DNA of 64,000 nt from Pristiophorus japonicus (Eukaryota). Each line of letters opens with the position of its first letter. Positions within the stretch are counted from its first letter, which is position 1. The stretch spans positions 17,980,001 through 18,044,000 of the forward strand of contig NC_091995.1 of the NCBI RefSeq assembly GCF_044704955.1. The letters are read 5' to 3'. The notes under the pieces are model-generated. The model saw only the letters and a program-made list of their open reading frames with translations. It did not search any database and was not told the DNA's origin. A program made the translations under genes and the position numbers. Shown here piece by piece: positions 30,431-41,990 of the stretch.

Positions 30431-32187
30431 GCGAGCCAGCAAATAGCTTAGTGGGTGAATGAATGTTACATGAATTAGATACCGGATAGGGAGGAGCGAT
30501 GCTGTGGGTGCCACAGTCTAAGACAAGACAATTGCCCCCACCCCCACCCCCTACCCCGCTTGAGTTGGTCAATGTCCCATTATTAAAACCGCCAGTACAT
30601 TGTTGCCAATAATTACTCCATAACATTACTAGTTTGGATTATTACCGGTATATTTTACATGAACATTCTAGTGAATAATTGATTGAAAACTCCACCACAT
30701 TGTTGCATTCCCGCATTTTCTTCTTTAGAAAAGAAAGACTTGCATTTCTATAGGATGCACCTATTTGTACTGCAAAAATGGCCACCATGCTCATTTATCT
30801 ATGATTGGTCCCCTTGGATAATAAGCCACACCCTGAAGTTTCACAGGAATGTGTAACTGGAACCGCCCATGCCAAGGTCTCACTGATTTTGCAAATTGTA
30901 ACTCGATCCACTTTGACTTCCTGAAGTGAGAGAGGACAGATCTCCCCAGAAGACAGCAAGGGTCAGCCAGGTGGAGGGAGAGAGCTTGAGGGGGGGAGAG
31001 AGCTTGAGTGGGGAGAGAGAGTGGGAGAGAGAACTTGGGGGTGCAGAGAGAGAGCCTGGGGAGCGTGTAGAGAGAGAGAGAGAGAGCTTGGGAGGCGGAG
31101 ACACAGCCTTCGAGGGTGGTGGGAGAATAGAGAGCTTTGGGAGTTGGGAGAGAGCTTCCGGGGGCGGGGAGGGGGAGAGAAAGAGAGAGAGAGAGAGCTT
31201 TGGGGGAGGGGGAGAGAGCTTTGTGGGGGGGGGAAGAGCTTGCCGGGTGAGAGCCTGGTGGTGGTGGGGGGAAGAGACAGAGAGGGGGCTTGGGAGGGCG
31301 GGAGAGAGAACTTGGCGGGGGGCGAGAGAGGGAGGGAGAGCTTAGGGGGAGGGAGAGAGAAAGCTTGAGGGGAGGAGAGAGAGAGAGACCTTCGGGGGGG
31401 GGGCGGGGTGGGAGACAGCCTCGGGGGTGGTGGGAGAGAGAAAGATCTTGGGGGGGAGAGAGTTTGGTGGGCAATGGAAGAGAGGGCTTGGGGGGGGCAG
31501 AGAGAGAATGCTTGGGGCGGGAGAGAGAGAGAGAGAGCTTGGGCCGGGGGAGAGAGAGAGAGAGCTTGGGCGGGGGAGAGAGAGAGGGAGAGCTTGTAGG
31601 GGTGGGGGAGGGGGGGTGGAGGGAGAGAGCTTGGGGGAGAGAGAGAGGGAGCTTGGGGAGGAGAGAGAGAGAGAGAGAGCTTGGGGGGGAGAGAGAGCTC
31701 GAGGGGTGGGAAGAGAGAGTTGAGGGCGAGGGAGAGAGAGAATGAGAGTTTGGAGGGGGGAGAGAGAGTTCGGGAGGGTGAGAGAGAGAATGAGTTTGGG
31801 GTTGAGAGTGTGCTTCGGGGGAGAGAAAGCTTGGGGTAGGAGAGAGAAAGAGATAGAGAGGGCTTGGAAGGGGGTGGGAGAGAGAGTTTTGGGGAAGAAA
31901 TAGAGAGAGAGAGAGAGAGCTTGGGGGCAGGCTTGAGAGAGAGCTTGGGTGCACAGAGAGAGAGCTTGGAGGTGGGGGAACAGAGACCATGGGGGTTGGA
32001 GAGAGAGAGCTTGGGAGGTGGTGGGAGAAAGAGATGGGGAGGAGAGAGAGAGCTTGCAGGCGGAGAGAAAGAAAGAGAGCTTGGGGGGCGGGGGAGAGGG
32101 AAGAGAGTTTGTGGCGGGGGAGGGAGCTCGGGGGGAGAGAGAGAGAGAGTTTGCGGGGGGTGAGAGAGTTCAGAGTTTGTGGCGGCA

Positions 32188-33636
32188 ACATAGAAACATA
32201 GAACATAGAAAATAGGTGCAGGAGTAGGCCATTCGGCCCTTCGACCCTGCACCGCCATTCAATGAGTTCATGGCTGAACATTCAACTTCAGTACCCCATT
32301 CCTGCTTTCGCGCCATACCCCTTGATCCCCCTAGTAGTAAGGACCTCATCTAACTCCTTTTTAAATATATTTAGTGAATTAGCCTCAACAACTTTCTGTG
32401 GTAGAGAATTCCACAGGTTAACAACTCTCTGAGTGAAGAAGTTTCTCCTCATCTCAGTCCTAAATGGCCTACCCCTTATCCTCAGACTGTCCCCTGGTTC
32501 TGGACTTCCCCAACATTGGGAACATTCTTCCTGCATCTAACCTGTCTAACCCCGTCAGAATTTTAAATGTTTCTATGAGGTCCCCTCTCATTCTTCTGAA
32601 CTCCAGTGAATACAAGCCCAGTTGATCCAGTCTTTCTTGATAGGTCAGTCCCGCCATCCCGGGAATCAGTGAGGTTATCCACTTTGGTGGTAAAAACAGA
32701 GAGACAGACTATTATCTGAATGGTGACAGATTAGGAAAAGGGGAGGTGCAAAGAGACCTGGGTGTCATGGTACATCAGTCATTGAAGGTTGGCATGCAGG
32801 TGCAGCAGGCGGTTAAGAAAGCAAATGGCATGTTGGCCTTCATAGCAAGGGGATTTGAGTACAGGGGCAGGGAGGTGTTGCTACAGTTGTACAGGGCATT
32901 GGTGAGGCCACACCTGGAGTATTGTGTACAGTTTTGGTCTCCTAACCTGAGGAAGGACATTCTTGCTATTGAGGGAGTGCAGCGAAGGTTCACCAGACTG
33001 ATTCCCGGGATGGCGGGACTGACCTATCAAGAAAGACTGGATCAACTGGGCTTGTATTCACTGGAGTTCAGAAGAATGAGAGGGGACCTCATAGAAACAT
33101 ATAAAATTCTGACGGGGTTAGACAGGTTAGATGCAGGAAGAATGTTCCCAATGTTGGGGAAGTCCAGAACCAGGGGTCACAGTCTAAGGATAAGGGGTAA
33201 GCCATTTAGGACCGAGATGCGGAGGAACTTCTTCACCCAGAGAGTGGTGAACCTGTGGAATTCTCTACCACAGAAAGTTGTTGAGGCCAATTCACTAAAT
33301 ATATTCAAAAAGGAGTTAGATGAGGTCCTTACTGCTAGGGGGATCAAGGGGTATGGCGAGAAAGCAGGAATGGGGTACTGAAGTTGAATGTTCAGCCATG
33401 AACTCATTGAATGGCGGTGCAGGCTAGAAGGGCCGAATGGCCTACTCCTGCACCTATTTTCTATGTTTCTATGTTTCTATGTTTCTATCAGTCTGGTATA
33501 CCTTCGCTGCACTCCCTCAATAGCAAGAATGTCCTTCCTCAGGTTAGGAGACCAAAACTGTACACAATACTCCAGGTGTGGCCTCACCAATGCCCTGTAC
33601 AACTGTAGCAACACCTCCCTGCCCCTGTACTCAAAT
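32188..33636. mobile_element. Young CR1 (minus; 32188-32670 plus 33487-33636) with a same-family CR1 (plus; 32671-33486) inserted in the opposite orientation
   Basis: TSD ATCAGT at 32665-32670 and 33487-33492. The inner copy has an open 211-aa ORF2 C-terminus. (tttctatg)n tails. Confidence 0.9.
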
Positions 33637-34609
33637 GAGAGACAGAGAGAGAGCTTAAGTTGGGGGAGAGTGTGGTAGCTTGGTGTGGGGGAGGGAGAGA
33701 GACGGGTTGGAGAGGGAGAGGGAGCTTGGGGAGGGGGAGAGGGAGCTCGGGGAGAGGGAGGGGGAGCTTGGGGGAGAGAGAGGGAGAGCCCGGGGTGTGG
33801 AGAGAGAGAGTGCTTGCGCGAGGGGAAGAGAGAGAGATAGAGAGAGCTTGTGGGGGAAGAGAGAGAGAGAGCTTGGGGGGGTCGGTGGGGGCTGGAGGAG
33901 AGAGTGAGCTTGTGGGTAGGAGAGAGTGAGAGAGAGAACATGGGGTGGGGGGGTGGTGAGAGAGAGCGAGCAAGCTTGGGGTTGTGGAGAGAGAGAGACA
34001 GTGCTTGGGGGGGGGGGGCGGAGAGAGACAGCCTCGGGGATGGTGGGAGAGAGAAAGAGCTTGGTGGTTGGGAGAGAGCTTCGCAGGGGGAAGAGAGAGC
34101 TTGGGGGATTGGAAGAGAGTCTGGGGGCTGGAGATTGAGAGCTTTAAGGGGGAGAGACCTTGGGGGGGGAGAGAGAGCGAGAACCTGGGGATGGGGGGGG
34201 AGGAGGAGAGAGAAAGAGAGGGCTTAGGAAGGGGGGAGGGAGAATGGGGGGAGAGAGAGAGCCTGGGGGTGGGGTGGGGGGAGGGGGAGTGGAGCGGGAG
34301 CTTGGGGGGGTGGAGAGGGAGCTTGGAGGAGAGAGCGAGTGAGAGCATGGGTGGGGGGGAGAGGAAGCTTGGGGTTCGTGGGAGAGAGGAGGGGAGAGTT
34401 TGGTGGGGGGGTTGAGAGGGCTTGGAGGGTGGGGGGAGAGAGAGAGAGATTGGGGGGAGAGAGAGCGTGCGGGTCAGAAGAGAGAGTTGGGGGGCAAGGG
34501 AGTGAGAGAGGGAATGATTGGGGGGAGAGTGGGCTTGGGGGGGAGAGAGAGAGAGCTTGCAGGAATGTGAGACCGAACTTGGGGGGACAGAGAGATAGAG
34601 TTTGGGGCA

Positions 34610-35279
34610 TGTTAGCGTTAGTGTTTTCTTAGAAGAATCACTCAACACTCAGGGTCAGTTCCAATGCTGAAGCAGCTTTTATTACGCTCAGCGGGAAGGA
34701 AAAACTCAGGACCGTATCCAGGTTTCTCTTCACAGAACAAAGAGTTACATGTACCTTTATATGTTTCACAACAGTTACAACACAGTTTACTGCAGCTACA
34801 CAGCCCATCACGGCTGGACACAAGCCAATCACAATGATTATAGATTACATATAGGTTATTTTAACCCAATAGAATTCCCCTTATGTCTCAGGAACCATGT
34901 GTTCGTCTTTTGTCAGCTTGGGCTGATTGATATAGGTTCTCTCACTAGTTCTTTCTTCTTGGAGAAATAATTGGTATATAGCCTTGTTTACAGCAAATGG
35001 TTTCCCTCTTATCTTTCTTCCTGAAATAATTGGTTTCATGGCCTTGTTCACAGGAGATGGTTTCCTTCTTATCTCTGTCTTCCCAGGCATTCCTACAGTG
35101 GGCCTCACAGGGTTATTGCTCGGTCAGTGAACGTTCAACAGTTCACAGTTTGACTACCTGATTTCCCATAATGCCTGGGCAGCCATTTTATGTGTGTGTC
35201 CATTTAAGCTTATGTGAGTTTTAAATATCCAGCAGGTGCCTAATGCCTAAGTCTATATATATTTCTACTCTCTACAACA
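34610..35279 (-). repeat. 3' LTR
   Basis: Direct repeat of 40207-40876 (offset 5597). On the minus strand, TATAAA at 34761-34756 and AATAAA at 34683-34678. Confidence 0.95.
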
Positions 35280-35292
35280 ATTCCCCCCTTTC
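35280..35292 (-). other. Polypurine tract
   Basis: gaaaggggggaat immediately precedes the TG of the 3' LTR on the minus strand. Confidence 0.85.
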
Positions 35293-35418
35293 GGTAAAGG
35301 GACTAGTCCTAGTCCCCTTTTAACCGACCGTACTGCCTTTATCTGATATTTGTGCACTGCCCGGTACTCCTTGCCTCAACGTGCTGGCCAGTCACGCGGT
35401 TTCAGGAGTCCCGGTTGC

Positions 35419-37522
35419 TTAGATCAAATTAACAAAGGCTAGCTCCTCCCGTCCCCTTATCAAACAGGCTTGTTTAATATCCAGGGAATGGTGATTGGTC
35501 CGTTTCCGCCGTTTGTGGCGCCTGCATACCTGGCAGGCCATCACGCCCCATGTTATTGCTAAGATTAATTGTATTCCGACCAGTGTGTGTGAAATAATTC
35601 GAATCCATGGGTGGATGTTCACATTTATTCCCCAGTCCCAGACCTTTCTCCACCAACTCTGACTTTGTAAGTCTACCTCGGTATCTTCTTTGATTTTAGT
35701 TTGTAGCTGGTGATAGAGTTTTACAGATTGACCCACTCTGAGCCTCAACTCCCGTAATACTTCGGTTAGATGTGGGATAGGGACCTGCTCTGGCTCGTCA
35801 TAATCCTGCAAATGATCATGGAGCTGATCAGTTACTTCAATAACTTCGGACTTCCGGCGCCTAACCTGGGTGATATGCGATTGCCCGATCGTGACAGGTC
35901 GTAGTGGTGTAAAGCAAAAGTTTGGCTGCGGTATAGGGCACTGCAGGTCATTATACTGGTATGAACGCTCAGTAGTAGAGACGCAGTATCTTCCCCTCCC
36001 TCCGTAGCCTGCCCTCGCGAAGTGCATGTGTGCGGGCACTATTTCTAGTACACACCCGTTGGTTCGGTTAAACCCGCACTCGTCTAGTTCCCCTCGGCCC
36101 ACCGGGTGAGGGCATACTGTGATTTCCCCCCTTTGCTTGCAATCTGCTAGGGAAATCCCAGTAAGTATGTTGTTTCGACGAACGGCAGAGGTGGTGGTTA
36201 GGTAGTAGCGTATGGAGACATTTTCCCGTATTACTCCGATATTCTCTAGTTGGTATAAGGGGAACGGCCCTGAGTCCGGCGTTGCTATGGGGATCAACAG
36301 GACTATCCCTATCCCGGTAGTCCTACCCATCTGGCAATCTGGAATTGCGGGGTATACTCGGGTCAGTCCCTTCAGAGTACAATTATCCAGTGTCCCCCTT
36401 TGGTTCGCCAACTGAGCCAAATGTGAACTGTCTATCCAATCGGGTACTTCCCCGCGTTGGATCTGGTCGAGGTTGTGGCGGATCTGTCCCACCATCCACA
36501 GACCATAAGCATGACAGAGTTGCCCCTGTCTTTGCTTTATTGTATCTTCTTGTTCTCTATCAATGAGGTGATTGATGGTTTTAGCGTGAGCTTCCAGGAC
36601 TGAGATGCCATCCAACTGGATTTCGGCACCCTCCTTTCCTAGGTTGGCCTGGTCTTCCTGGTTTTGCTCCACCCTCTCCAATAACCCCTTCATCACCCCT
36701 TTAAGCTGTTCTACCCTCTCATTTAGCCCTTGTATGTCTATCGAGTTCACTACGGAGGTTCCTGTATTGAAAACGGTAGCAACATCATTTACTATTTCCC
36801 TCTTCACCCTGGGTGCTAACCCCTGTCCCCGGAACTTACTGGCACCCATGGCATCGGCAGCCTGCTGCATTACGACTTTACTTAATACATTGTACATCTT
36901 CCTTGACTGTTCGGTACAATATTCCGGCATCTGGATGCCTGAAATATTGATCAGAACAGGCACAATTTCATGTTTAACATTATCATACAATAATTCCCCT
37001 TCGTTGTACATTGCAATCCCATTTTCTGGTCCCTTAGTAGTTATGGGACAAGGCAGTTCTTCGGGCAATGTAGTGATTCTTATGGGGCGCGGTGTCGGAG
37101 GGGGTGAGAAACATACATACAATTATATTGCAGCCGCCCCCGCCTCCTCGTAATACCCACACAGCCCCATTCCCTTCTTGCGGATGACTGATTGCTGGGA
37201 TTGTCCCGGAGGCGCGCAAATTATGCCGAAAGTACATTCATCAGGCCCTTTGACATCCCTCCGTTTAATGCATCTGCTCCTTATACCCGTGGAGCACTGT
37301 ACACATACTCTTATTCTTATTAGGATTCTTATTAAAATAAGTCCTGTCCTTGCTCCAGTCCTTGGCTGCTGGGATGCACATTCCGTCCGTTAAATTAAAC
37401 AAGACTCCATAGTTCATATAGTTGTTTATTTCCAGCGTGCTCTGCTGTCCGTCGGTGTTGCCCAGGGTACGTGCCTGTCGCAGGGCTATCCATATTACGA
37501 GTAGCGCCGTTCGTATTCCCAT
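35419..37522 (-). CDS. env: Envelope / class I fusion glycoprotein. 567-codon open part 35419-37122; the N-terminus from ATG 37522 is separated from it by one frameshift (~37300-37340) and one TAA (37123-37125)
   Basis: Signal-peptide-like MGIRTALLVIWIALRQARTL, furin site RVKR (cut at 36799/36798), fusion-peptide-like segment and heptad repeat, Cys-rich ectodomain with N-glycosylation sequons, Trp-rich juxtamembrane region, TM helix and basic tail. Confidence 0.85.
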
Positions 37523-37610
37523 TCCGGTAAGTATTATCTGTAATTTTAAACAGACGGCCTGGTCGTCACCAGGGGTTAAGTTTTTTTGCTCTACGAGTGT
37601 CCCTGTCACC

Positions 37611-37632
37611 CTGCAAAATCAGAAGCACAAGG
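37611..37632 (-). promoter_or_regulatory. env splice acceptor
   Basis: ccttgtgcttctgattttgcag|G; the first downstream ATG is the signal-peptide ATG (ggaATGG). Confidence 0.7.
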
Positions 37633-40140
37633 TTATAATCGAACCATTTCGAGCTGAATCTGTAGGGCGTGCGCCTGTGTCTTTACCCACTTAAATATTA
37701 CCCAAACTCCTATTATGACCAAGGCCAAAGCTATTCCTCCAAACATCGCTGTCTGCTTTACCGTTAGGTTGGGTTTGTGGACTACACCTACCCACCGTGG
37801 GGTACATTGGCTCTATTGCCAGAGGTGATGGTGCTATGGCTGCGCACTGCACTATCCGTCTAGTCCCGTTATCTCTTCCAGCCTGTTTATCTTAGCTTTT
37901 AACTCTTCAATTTGTTTTATTGAATATCTATTTCTTTATTGTATCAGGCAAGTATTATTACATAAGCTAGTTCTGTTTTTATTTTTGTTTCCTCTGTTAG
38001 GTGAGTCTTTTTTTTTTCCCTATTAAGAAATCCAAATTAATAATGTTCAGTATAAAACGGCTGTCAATGGAAAGGGTTAACTCCTTTCCAGGTTTGTAAG
38101 AAGACCTGATGTCATTACGTGACTTCACGTAATCATCTGAAAAAAAAAGTCTTTGTGCCTTCAAAACTGGCTTCGAAATTAGGAATCCGTTAAACAGCAT
38201 AAATCATTAGAGTAAACTCCAATGTTTTCTTAACTTCTAATTCAAGTACTTGCCAAAGAATTTTTTTTTTTTTAAATTGTTTTAAAACAAGACCACACAT
38301 ACAATAGCAATTTTGTTTACTGAAATTCAATTCTGTTTTTTTTTTATTTCTCTCTTTCTCCTCGTTATCTTCAAAACCCTCCTGCTTGTTTAGACTGTTC
38401 GGGACATTTTTGATAAACACTGTCCATTTTGGAAATCTTTTCAAACTGCATTGAAACTTTTTCATAATTTAAAATTCGAATCCATGTAGAGTGTTTTTTT
38501 ACTTATTCCAATTTTTTTTCTCTTCTAATTAAACCAATATCTTTTTCACAGCAAACATCAACTAGTATTTAGTAAGTTATGTCTTTTTCCATTTAGTCCG
38601 TTACATCTTTTTTTTTTCCTTTCTTCAAATTAGGTTTTGTATTTTACACGGAGGGTTCGTAACTCCATAAAGTTGTTAATTTAAAATCATTTGTTTACTT
38701 TCAAAGTGGCGTCTTTATCTTTTTCTTTTTCTCCATAACTGGAATGAAGTCCATCTTTGAGAGTTTGAGTGCTTTTTCGTTATCTCAAAATGCTCCAGTT
38801 TCAAAGTCGTTACTAAAGCTTGCTGTTTTTTTTTTAACATTTTCCAAAAGTTCCTTTTACACCTTCGCAGATAGCTCGCCACTTGCCCAGGAGTTTGACC
38901 TGATCAGATTTAATTTAATCTTTCTCTTTTTTTTTTAAATCCACCTCAGTATTTCCTGTGCCTTCTCTGAATATCTCAAAATCCCAATTCAAACGTTGTA
39001 ATTTCAATCTTTATTTAAAACTTTTTTTTTAGAAGCTCTTTTTTTTTAAAGCATTCTTTATCTCATTCCGAGACTAAATTTATGTCTTTCAACCCAATCA
39101 ATCATTGCATGTTTTCTTTCGGCAAGTAAGTGAGCATGTCAAATAAATATTTTGCTCAACAAACCTATTCTTTATTTGTTTATTTTCCTAGCTCCGTAAC
39201 TTATCATCCGAATAAATCCACACCTGCGTTTCTAACTTAAATGTCTTAAAACTTCCCACATACAGGACAACATTACAAAGGGTTTAAAAAAAAGACTTTC
39301 ACTCTGTTTCTAAAATAAACAGACACTTGCATTCCTCTTCCAACCAGGCTTTCGGAACATGAAAACATAAAAAATTCATTCTGCAGTCAAAAATCACACA
39401 GACACTTCTCACTCAACGATCAGACATTTACAACAGTCTCTCTTCTTGTTTTGGCCGGCTCTATTTTTGGATCCATGACCTTTCAGGGAATTCGTAGTTT
39501 TATCTAAATAATTCCTCACATAACTAATTCCTGAGGATTCGACCCTGCTTTAATCATTTTTTCAATTAGCTTCTTTTGTTTTTCCGCCAGGTGGCGGGTA
39601 AGCGACCCTTCTGGTCCCCACTCGAGTTTACTTGTTTTCATGGCCATTCCTGGGTAGGACTGGTATCGTTAGGAATCTACTCTCAGAGGTCCGCTTTCTT
39701 TCTAGCGCGACTTGTAGTAAACTGTCTCTTGGCTACTGTCAGGTCACAAGTTCTGCTGTTACACAAACTTATACAATTCTTAAAAACGCGTTTAAGCAAT
39801 TCCCGCAGTGCTCTACATATCCTTAACGACTACCTACCACCGCTCAGCCTGTTGGTCCGACCCTGTTCACAGGTTTGGATTCCGTTAGCCGCTGTACACT
39901 GCTTGGTTCTACCCCGGGGTATTTCAAATTACACTACTGGGTCCGGAAGATGTCTCTCGGTATCACGATCCCACGGTCTAAGTGTGTTCCCTACGCCTAC
40001 TTGGTTCCTGGCCGTCACGTGGGACAAAAGTCCTCTTAATTCAGGCTCAGGCTAGGCGTTTGAGATATTAGACCGTCTCCTCATGTCGATCAACCAGCTT
40101 CCACCTTCCGCACCCTTTATACTTAAAAATTGTTTTTTAT

Positions 40141-40149
40141 ACTCACCCG
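40141..40149 (-). promoter_or_regulatory. Major splice donor of the provirus
   Basis: cgg|gtgagt, about 40 nt downstream of the PBS. Confidence 0.7.
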
Positions 40150-40187
40150 GGTTTTTTTTTCCCAAGGGCGTCCAGCGACTCCGGGAA

Positions 40188-40205
40188 ATCCTGCCGACTA
40201 CGCCA
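40188..40205 (-). other. Primer-binding site, tRNA-Ser
   Basis: TGGCGTAGTCGGCAGGAT, complementary to the vertebrate tRNA-Ser 3' end ATCCTGCCGACTACGCCA, 1 nt after the 5' LTR. Confidence 0.9.
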
Positions 40206-40206
40206 T

Positions 40207-40876
40207 TGTTAGCGTTAGTGTTTTCTTAGAAGAATCACTCAACACTCAGGGTCAGTTCCAATGCTGAAGCAGCTTTTATTACGCTCAGCGGGAAGGAAAA
40301 ACTCAGGACCGTATCCAGGTTTCTCTTCACAGAACAAAGAGTTACATGTACCTTTATATGTTTCACAACAGTTACAACACAGTTTACTGCAGCTACACAG
40401 CCCATCACGGCTGGACACAAGCCAATCACAATGATTATAGATTACATATAGGTTATTTTAACCCAATAGAATTCCCCTTATGTCTCAGGAACCATGTGTT
40501 CGTCTTTTGTCAGCTTGGGCTGATTGATATAGGTTCTCTCACTAGTTCTTTCTTCTTGGAGAAATAATTGGTATATAGCCTTGTTTACAGCAAATGGTTT
40601 CCCTCTTATCTTTCTTCCTGAAATAATTGGTTTCATGGCCTTGTTCACAGGAGATGGTTTCCTTCTTATCTCTGTCTTCCCAGGCATTCCTACAGTGGGC
40701 CTCACAGGGTTATTGCTCGGTCAGTGAACGTTCAACAGTTCACAGTTTGACTACCTGATTTCCCATAATGCCTGGGCAGCCATTTTATGTGTGTGTCCAT
40801 TTAAGCTTATGTGAGTTTTAAATATCCAGCAGGTGCCTAATGCCTAAGTCTATATATATTTCTACTCTCTACAACA
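40207..40876 (-). repeat. 5' LTR
   Basis: Repeat of 34610-35279, followed by the PBS on the minus strand. Confidence 0.95.
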
Positions 40877-41990
40877 GGGCAGAACAGAGAACTTGAGGGT
40901 TGGAAAGAGAGGTGCAGAAGAGTGCGAGAGAGAGCTTGCAGGGGGAGAGTGCTTGGGGAGAGAGAGAGAGAGGCAGAGCCTGGGGAGGGGGCGGGGTGGA
41001 GAGAGCGCATGGCGGGGGAGAGACAGAGCTTGGGGTCGGGGGGGTGAGAGAGAGCTTGGGAAGGAGCGAGAGTGAGAACGAGAGCTTGTGGGAGGGAGAG
41101 ATAGAGCTTGGGAATTAGAGAGACAGGGAGCTTCGGGGGCGAGGAGAGAACGTGAGGGAGAGAACTTGGGCGGGGGGGGAAGAGAGCCTGGGGAGGGCGT
41201 GGAGAAAGAGAGAGAGAGAGAGCTTGGGGTGGGGGGAGAGACAGCCTTCGGGCGTGGTGGGAGAGAGAGAGAGCTTTGGGAGTTGGGAGAGAGCATCTGG
41301 GCACGGTGGGGGTGGGAGGGGTGGAGGGAAGAGAGAGCTTGAGGGGGGAGAGAGCTTGCGGGGGGGGAGAGCTTGCGGGGAGAAAGGGAGAGCCTGGGGG
41401 AGTGTTGGTGGTGAGAGCGAGCTTTGGGGGGGAGGGGGAGATAGCATGCAGGGTGAAGAGAGCTAGTGGGGGAGAGAGCCTGGGTGTGGGAGAAGGGAGG
41501 AGAGAGAGAGGGGGCTTGGGGGGGATGAGAGAACTTGGCGGGGGCAGAGAGAGGGAGAGAGAGCTTGGTGGGGAGAGAGAGAGAAAGCTTGGCGGTGGGA
41601 GAGAGAAAGAGCTTGCGGGGGGAGAGAGTTTGGTGGGCAGGGCAAGAGAGAGCTTGGCGGTGGGGCGGGGGGAGAGAGGGAAAGCTTGAGGCGGGAGAGA
41701 GAGAGAGAGAGAGAGCTATTGGCGGGGGGGAGGTGGGGGGAGAGAGAGCTTGGCGGGGAGGGGTGAGAGAGTGAGAGCTTGCAGGGAGAAAAGAGAGAGA
41801 GAGAGAGCTTGGACCTTGGGGGGAGAGAGAGCTTATGGGGGAGACAGAGCTCGGGGTGTGGGAAGAGAGAGCTTGTGGCGGGGGAGAGAGTTCGGAATTT
41901 GGGGAGGAGAGAGGGCTTGGAGGGGGAGAGAGAGCTTGGGGAGGGGGAGAGGAAGCTTGGGCGAGAGAGAGGGAGAGCCTGGGGGGTGGA

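Follow-up and report, generated by a model that had tools for sequence, protein, structure and literature searches.

A pol-less sawshark provirus with a broken env gene, whose Env has a predicted F-type fold and whose pol-bearing relatives likely belong to the SnRV clade

The provirus and its divided env gene

In the 64,000-nt stretch of sawshark DNA that we analysed, referred to below as the window, a 567-codon frame runs from stop to stop on the minus strand (35419-37122), within a 6267-nt provirus (34610-40876) which does not contain pol. All features of the provirus are read on the minus strand. Its 5' LTR (40207..40876; 670 nt, TG...CA ends) is 100% identical to the 3' LTR (34610..35279; 670 nt), and a 5-bp target-site duplication flanks the insertion (left copy 34605..34609, right copy 40877-40881). 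If the slow rate for sharks given in the available text of PMC4422223 is applied, zero differences over 670 nt put the upper bound for the age of the insertion at ~10 million years. The primer-binding site (40187..40205) is complementary to the 3' end of tRNA-Ser(AGA), and a search pattern with the complement of this site was located inside tRNA-Ser(AGA) genes at 3 of the 3 loci checked. The tRNA-Ser 3' motif itself has 1099 matches genome-wide, and also occurs in a tandem array with a ~1.95-kb period on contig C23 (about 18.57-20.47 Mb).

Downstream from the primer-binding site a likely env splice donor with GT consensus (39832..39837) is followed by a gag remnant, comprising the first 45 codons (39525..39659; 93% to gag of pol-bearing relatives by tblastn), and then by 1779 nt of non-coding, A-rich (40% A) filler (37746..39524), which takes the place of ~4.9 kb of gag-pol in these relatives. 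The filler had no match to the pol-bearing relatives or to the retrieved proteins, and Rfam and ARAGORN returned no match in the element or in the 64-kb window. A likely splice acceptor, with pyrimidine tract and AG, lies ahead of env (37611..37620). Both splice sites are proposed from sequence context and consensus, together with one contig of an unlabelled run showing a splice-like joint between the donor and the acceptor region; the three unlabelled contig sets that cover the stretch are too little for an expression claim. Between env and the 3' LTR there is no long ORF, and a polypurine tract (35281..35292) precedes the LTR. The provirus lies in a long GA-rich satellite, biased in strand and with AGCTT as its core, which occupies about 30900-34600 and 40880-63500 of the window and into which LINE-like pieces have been inserted as well. 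The latter, at window 32200-33640, are RT 3'-end fragments, inverted and rearranged, with arms 95-99% complementary, which we take to be of CR1 type.

The env gene of this copy is divided in two. Its 5' piece (37265..37522) comprises an ATG, a hydrophobic signal-like segment and 85 codons to a stop, the frame leaving env at a frameshift near 37345-37308, and a further in-frame stop (37123..37125) interrupts the surface part. What follows is the 567-codon 3' part (35419..37122), in which the frame analysis and the structural model place an F2-like strand and helix, the RVKR site (36810-36799), a heptad helix, a Cys-rich beta core, a second heptad, a Trp-rich stretch, a transmembrane segment (about 35598-35527) and a tail; a small in-frame deletion lies near 35685. 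The 567-codon frame has no signal peptide and is therefore only part of a gene, whose true start is upstream, at the ATG at 37522.

The original prediction, made from the bare sequence, had described an RVKR site followed by a 459-aa subunit, and both counts are exact: RVKR occupies residues 105-108 of the 567, and 459 aa remain after the cut. The further layout it gave, with a heptad repeat, a multi-Cys region, a second helix, a Trp-rich stretch, a transmembrane helix and a basic tail, was likewise recovered. The frame contains 16 Cys and four N-x-S/T sites. The most hydrophobic part is residues 509-532 (Kyte-Doolittle 19-mer mean 1.9), with the Trp-rich stretch on its N-terminal and the basic tail on its C-terminal side. 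Gamma-type Env is recognised by a CX6CC motif and a short TM ectodomain; CX6CC is absent from the frame, as had been noted. The segment called fusion-peptide-like does stand directly after RVKR, but it is weakly hydrophobic (best 19-mer mean 0.87), so that this label is justified by position, without support from composition. The presumed shark host was also correct, since a UniRef protein that bears the name of the sawshark Pristiophorus japonicus has 99% identity to a locus of the same genome. The layout thus stood, while the broken state of env in this copy and the absence of pol had been overlooked.

Homologues of the env frame were found in six shark genera, frogs and the coelacanth, and pN/pS of the window frame, pooled against 10 pol-bearing copies, was 0.16; together these show a real coding sequence and no chance ORF.

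Copies of the element and its pol-bearing relatives

The genome searched for copies comprised 5.9 Gb. Exact-word counts, which are floors as they register exact matches only, were 1060 for a 24-mer of the filler, 538 for env and 82 for a 23-mer of RT, with 0 for the controls; the filler word is ~13 times commoner than the RT word of the pol-bearing relatives. All 12 close copies that were retrieved carry the env frameshift, and among the 77 best-scoring copies the frame again measures 567 codons in 72, hence the breaks are inherited. Assembly error as their source was ruled out, the breaks being common to many copies.

Fifteen loci with a long env frame were retrieved, among them eight with open gag, pol and env, four with broken pol and three without pol. 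The eight open-frame loci represent six insertion sites, three of them with identical LTRs, and their frames measure 469 codons for gag, about 1180 for pol and about 740-760 for env (stop to stop). Perfect 5-bp duplications were found at 7 of 10 sites where both ends are readable, and the gag-pol junction is TGA in all nine copies matched. Env of the gag-pol-env relatives is about 95% identical to that of the window, and one pol-bearing copy encodes an Env protein 98% identical to the window frame. L023, L024 and L025 are one insertion with the same flanks, on C8 and two smaller contigs, resulting from duplication or redundant assembly. Tandem copies ~5.6 kb apart, which apparently have an LTR in common, occur at L009, at C11:83912141/83917737 and at C1:463760780/463766421. 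Three database gene models (P0033, P0039 and P0054) join env-family pieces to host genes (Niban 1-like, fbxo15 and cadherin-related 5-like), and are either annotation artefacts or exonised ERV.

In our reading, a pol-less provirus whose LTRs are identical carries here the 3' part of its interrupted env. This provirus was likely copied in trans by gag-pol-env relatives in the same genome, which likely belong to the SnRV clade and whose Env is predicted to be F-type; the probability of this reading is, in our estimate, roughly four in five. In the pol-bearing virus a spliced env mRNA would give a ~707-aa precursor with signal peptide, and its extra N-terminal, Cys-rich beta domain of ~140 aa would likely bind the receptor. 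The precursor would be cut by furin at R-x-K-R, the piece before the cut would remain woven into the beta core, as in F, and the two heptad helices would zip to a six-helix bundle, bringing about membrane fusion. Gag-Pol would be produced by UGA read-through, which is reported for some fish and frog retroviruses (available text of PMC13517186), while replication would use tRNA-Ser priming and integration would leave 5-bp target duplications. The window copy's env would yield just an 85-aa signal-bearing stub. Its 567-codon frame is probably a passenger, open through recent amplification and earlier selection in the viral lineage, and the copy would spread by complementation in trans, via helper proteins; trans complementation of defective elements is described in the available part of PMC10435555. 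The window copy retains the LTRs, primer site, purine tract and gag start, the cis signals on which helper proteins would depend.

The low pN/pS ratios could also be taken differently, namely that the pol-less subfamily supplies Env, with two defective genomes complementing each other, or that the product of the 567-aa frame is useful to the host. The ratio for the window frame is 0.18 against three older pol-less copies and 0.19 against 11 close copies, the latter set having been picked by protein score and thus biased low; at 0.18-0.19 some of the pol-less copies could have supplied Env. Two of these copies (L031 and L037) have a full env that is open, and in most near copies no stop interrupts the 567-codon frame. 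Open frames are expected, however, where copies differ by few substitutions, and the low ratios may be inherited or recombined in from the helper. Considering also that the frameshift is common to the window copy and every close copy retrieved, and that the long frame has no signal peptide, we regard supply of Env or host use as unlikely.

Predicted fold of Env and placement of the associated pol

A profile search with the Env family among 1.84 billion representatives gave 55 matches. Of these 24 are named, all being from sharks, frogs or the coelacanth, with no ray-finned fish among them; a word-indexed search with a wider alignment produced no more distant Env homologues (17 matches, all shark-named). 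As a check on an F-like Env the original prediction had proposed the Pfam profiles Fusion_gly, Baculo_F and Gypsy env, and none of them matched in 12 and 16 Env family members. Sequence search of the PDB with Env gave nothing useful.

The proposed comparison with RSV and PIV F by Foldseek had the opposite outcome. An AlphaFold model of the window Env was built from 38 collected sequences (pLDDT 69.5, pTM 0.49), and a second model represents a full natural Env (pLDDT 63.5, pTM 0.43); both are monomers of moderate confidence, with whole-chain TM-scores of at most 0.41. In the window model, helices 122-222 and 452-487 flank a beta-rich, Cys-rich core, and the core is predicted to be formed from both sides of the cleavage site, which together with two heptad helices characterises F-type fusogens. 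The best PDB matches of this monomer model were postfusion RSV F (E 5.9e-11) and hPIV3 F (E 9.4e-11); 96 matches had E at or below 0.001, and among the matches listed 44 of 44 were paramyxo/pneumovirus F. VIA-align gave Z 11.3 for NDV F (365 aligned, rmsd 18.4), 10.0 for hMPV F (277 aligned, rmsd 5.9), 8.5-10.0 for eight further F chains and 8.0 for foamy Env (265 aligned, rmsd 6.0), against a background in which unrelated helical bundles reach Z 8.4 over ~80 residues. In the structural alignments at least residues 30-423 of the model are covered, a range that includes the cut at 108.

In BFVD, the Env of the epsilonretrovirus WEHV-1 ranked third for the window model and first for the full natural Env (E 4.7e-14), and WDSV Env was matched by the two models at E 1.2e-8 and 2.7e-10. 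The matches of the window model are a mixture of arthropod-virus glycoproteins, a fish filovirus, baculovirus F, paramyxovirus F, WEHV-1/WDSV Env and feline foamy Env. Neighbours in the ESM Atlas carry Gypsy env, Baculo_F and Fusion_gly at 0.94-0.95, which is weak evidence, as the recognition value of 1701 is below the tool's 2300 mark. The N-terminal domain of Env was modelled at pLDDT below 50 and had no usable Atlas match. Three structure searches and the language-model search therefore agree with the original view of an F-like rather than SU/TM-like protein, and we predict from these models that the Env of this family is a paramyxo/pneumovirus-F-type fusogen. Matches to foamy or epsilon Env had been named beforehand as an outcome speaking against F-likeness if similarity to F was missing; such matches did occur, yet similarity to F was found along with them. 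They leave F-likeness intact, since foamy Env is itself F-like by cryo-EM (available text of PMC11468914) and the walleye Envs stand among the top matches of the models.

The pol of the relatives was placed separately. Pfam identified a protease (RVP), RT, tether, a dual RNase H (RT_RNaseH_2 and RNase_H) and an integrase, the last with a weak MLVIN_C match (E 0.003), and Gag has two zinc knuckles (Cys-His boxes). The order PR-RT-tether-RNase H-IN after an in-frame gag stop is orthoretroviral. RT-RNase H gave 405 bits to MLV/XMRV, 205 to foamy and 204 to Ty3, and the Gypsy/errantivirus assignment was ruled out on the difference between the first and the last. For the RT core alone the best PDB scores were 149 bits for MLV, 144 for one foamy RT and 78 for Ty3, and for RNase H alone 125 bits to MLV/XMRV and 22.6 to foamy. 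The MLV-type RNase H, the RVP protease and the two zinc knuckles do not agree with Spumaretrovirinae, and Pfam gave no Spuma protease match in the relatives' pol. Foamy Gag is not known to have Cys-His boxes. A search of the genome for a foamy protease gave no match, but neither did its controls, hence it is uninformative.

Identity of the RT core is 45.8% to our SnRV anchor and 40.6% to Rauscher MuLV. The anchor, P0117, is an unnamed Logan protein, and its RT, compared by eye, agrees with the SnRV row in the accessible alignment of PMC7947760. By pairwise bits RNase H (124 for MuLV vs 106 for SnRV) and integrase (137 vs 119) are slightly nearer to MuLV, a point against the SnRV reading. RT trees were made with FastTree (102 rows) and IQ-TREE (45 and 32 rows), from subsets that we selected among 103 matches. 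In all three the query and SnRV are on one side and the gamma/epsilon-like rows on the other, with support of 99/97 and 99/96 for the SnRV-side branch, and joining the query to the gamma/epsilon-like rows was rejected by the AU test on the 32-row IQ-TREE (p 0.0005). The query was never the direct sister of SnRV. As the trees are unrooted and contain no loki, foamy, ERV-L or named epsilon rows, they indicate separation from gamma/epsilon-like rows and not monophyly with SnRV. The phylogeny with the helper RT that the original prediction had called for thus put the query on the SnRV side, in trees from which loki rows are absent.

The env had been suspected to be of lokiretrovirus type, and a true lokiretrovirus that reached cartilaginous fish would share the F-like Env with R-x-K-R, the dual RNase H and the RT words RLTIDY and NGFW, present in many loki rows; several short Env motifs also match Loki-Xtr Env by eye. 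These RT words are, however, present in SnRV too, and the query RT reads LPQGF, as in SnRV, at a position where 24 of 24 loki rows in the accessible supplement of PMC7947760 have PFG. The RNase H is MLV-type, while that of lokiretroviruses was grouped with foamy (Wang and Han, available text of PMC7947760). The original statement that cartilaginous fish are not among the published loki hosts holds in the text available to us, although five chondrichthyan genomes were screened (PMC7947760); Chiloscyllium punctatum, which has this env, was among the species screened and is no reported loki host in the text covered. A degenerate loki-RT motif had 50 matches in the sawshark genome against 28 for a control, and none of the 29 read had an adjoining RT, a search by which degraded copies would be missed. 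The lokiretrovirus reading is therefore largely refuted and in our opinion very improbable; with a cognate pol whose RT resembles SnRV and whose RNase H resembles MLV, the pol-bearing virus is likely, as judged from its sequence, a member of the SnRV clade of orthoretroviruses and not a lokiretrovirus.

Relation to known retroviruses and the origin of Env

The SnRV clade of Orthoretrovirinae corresponds to clade Huo of Xu et al. 2018 and to CmiERV lineage I of the elephant shark (Han 2015), and SnRV-related ERVs are known from cartilaginous fish (PMC4422223; PMC6001957; PMC12193657, as far as available). The shark virus resembles the clade in its RT motifs and side of the tree, and both have an in-frame gag-pol stop, UAG in SnRV (available text of PMC13517186) and UGA in the shark virus. 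They differ in the Env tail, which is 136 aa in SnRV (available text of PMC12193657) and ~35 aa in the shark virus, and in the long ORF that follows env ahead of the 3' LTR, which the shark virus does not have. No description of the Env fold was found in the accessible text of papers on the clade, and no named SnRV Env was returned by our Env sequence or structure searches.

With lokiretroviruses, as far as described in the available text of Wang and Han 2021, the shark virus has in common the gag-pol-env layout, a dual RNase H, an F-related Env, R-x-K-R and a long post-cleavage ectodomain. A Mononegavirales-F-related Env with R-x-K-R, a mark of that group, is recovered here by predicted fold and not by Pfam. 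Other marks of lokiretroviruses are an RT clade that is sister to canonical retroviruses and an integrase near CGIN1. Besides the RT motif and the type of RNase H, differences are the Fusion_gly (PF00523) match given by loki Env, the weakly hydrophobic fusion segment of the shark Env, and the surface part, about 115 aa in Loki-Xtr and ~245 aa with an extra Cys-rich domain in the shark. The epsilonretroviral Envs (WEHV-1 and WDSV), top or near-top matches in predicted structure, are about 1160-1320 aa compared with ~707 in the shark, have 13-17% identity to it and come with a different pol group; epsilon Env has been called neither gamma- nor beta-type (bioRxiv 10.1101/2021.11.23.469661, available text). 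Foamy Env and paramyxo/pneumovirus F appear to have the fold in common with the shark Env model (Foldseek, VIA) at 8-15% identity. Foamy Env has a leader peptide in place of the cleavable signal-like N-terminus of the shark Env, and the shark pol is orthoretroviral. An F-type Env is also widespread among errantiviruses of invertebrates (bioRxiv 10.1101/2023.10.26.564294, available text).

Searches for distant Env homologues in the sawshark genome disclosed further families with F-like env. At 11 of 13 such loci there is an RT match, and in every one of them the top-scoring stretch favours SnRV over MuLV; eight of these RTs were included in the 32-row tree, and 8 of 8 fell on the SnRV side. The loci in question (L080-L092) represent at least three further ERV families, whose F-like env has about 30% or less identity to the window Env, and the SnRV-type word LD-I-x-NGFW is present in 10 of the 11 with RT. 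A lone open F-like env of 786 codons was also noticed at L077:3348-5708 (minus strand; C18 about 30167350-30169700), with a signal-like start, a furin site and a transmembrane segment. It is 42% identical to Chiloscyllium P0024, has a faint integrase remnant upstream and no visible LTR pair, and its nearest relatives in the same genome carry stops; we consider it a candidate for a host-co-opted F-type env.

As regards the origin of this Env, a virus of the SnRV clade may have gained it sideways, from a loki, epsilon or Mononegavirales/errantivirus donor, by capture in the shark and frog lineages; this would be compatible with the anatomy set out above and would say nothing about the ancestral Env. 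Pol and Env trees of anamniote ERVs are widely incongruent, and SnRV-related Pol occurs with gamma-type Env as well (both bioRxiv 10.1101/2021.11.23.469661, available text), the named homologues are confined to sharks, frogs and the coelacanth, and the arthropod-virus and fish-filovirus glycoproteins score as high as the retroviral ones in BFVD. On the other hand, this Env has deep roots, its families having 20-33% identity to one another, and in the sawshark genome it is accompanied by SnRV-type RT in both halves of that tree group, which fits long vertical descent. Foamy viruses have an F-like Env too, as do epsilon viruses going by predicted structure. We hold a sideways gain to be possible, at odds somewhat short of even.

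Alternatively, the F-type fusogen could be the ancestral retroviral Env, surviving in loki, foamy, walleye epsilon and SnRV-clade viruses, and the gamma/beta SU-TM Env a later replacement inside orthoretroviruses, a proposal to which we would give nearly an even chance. The second subclass of fusogens, which holds foamy Env and F, goes by the name class Ib. In the published models, so far as their available text goes, orthoretroviral Env is put in a subclass apart from foamy Env and F (Fernandez et al., PMC11468914), and loki Env is said to resemble Mononegavirales F 'but not canonical retroviruses', two independent Env gains being preferred (Wang and Han, PMC9040795). No published statement of an F-like Env in SnRV-clade, epsilon or other orthoretroviruses was found in the texts covered, including the available parts of PMC12583693, PMC11521997, PMC13709493 and bioRxiv 10.1101/2024.03.17.585361. 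In the running text of Viro3D's part on class-I fusogens no retroviral genus is mentioned, and a literature search by host species name gave no paper on retroviruses of Pristiophorus japonicus among the matches listed.

The element itself, a passenger without pol that is present about a thousand times, is ordinary. An F-like env by itself is insufficient ground to call a lokiretrovirus. Surveys of anamniote Env cover gamma- and beta-type only (bioRxiv 10.1101/2021.11.23.469661, available text), and screens of fish and amphibian ERVs with gamma/beta Env queries would miss the F-like class. The results suggest that F-type Env is more widespread in retroviruses, and possibly older, than published models allow: its predicted presence in orthoretroviruses of sharks, frogs and the coelacanth, along with the epsilon match, would break the published Env split, and four published scenarios of Env origin become testable by one structure-guided tree. 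If the F-type proves ancestral, the shark family, with its young open-frame copies, would represent the old type among orthoretroviruses in compact form.
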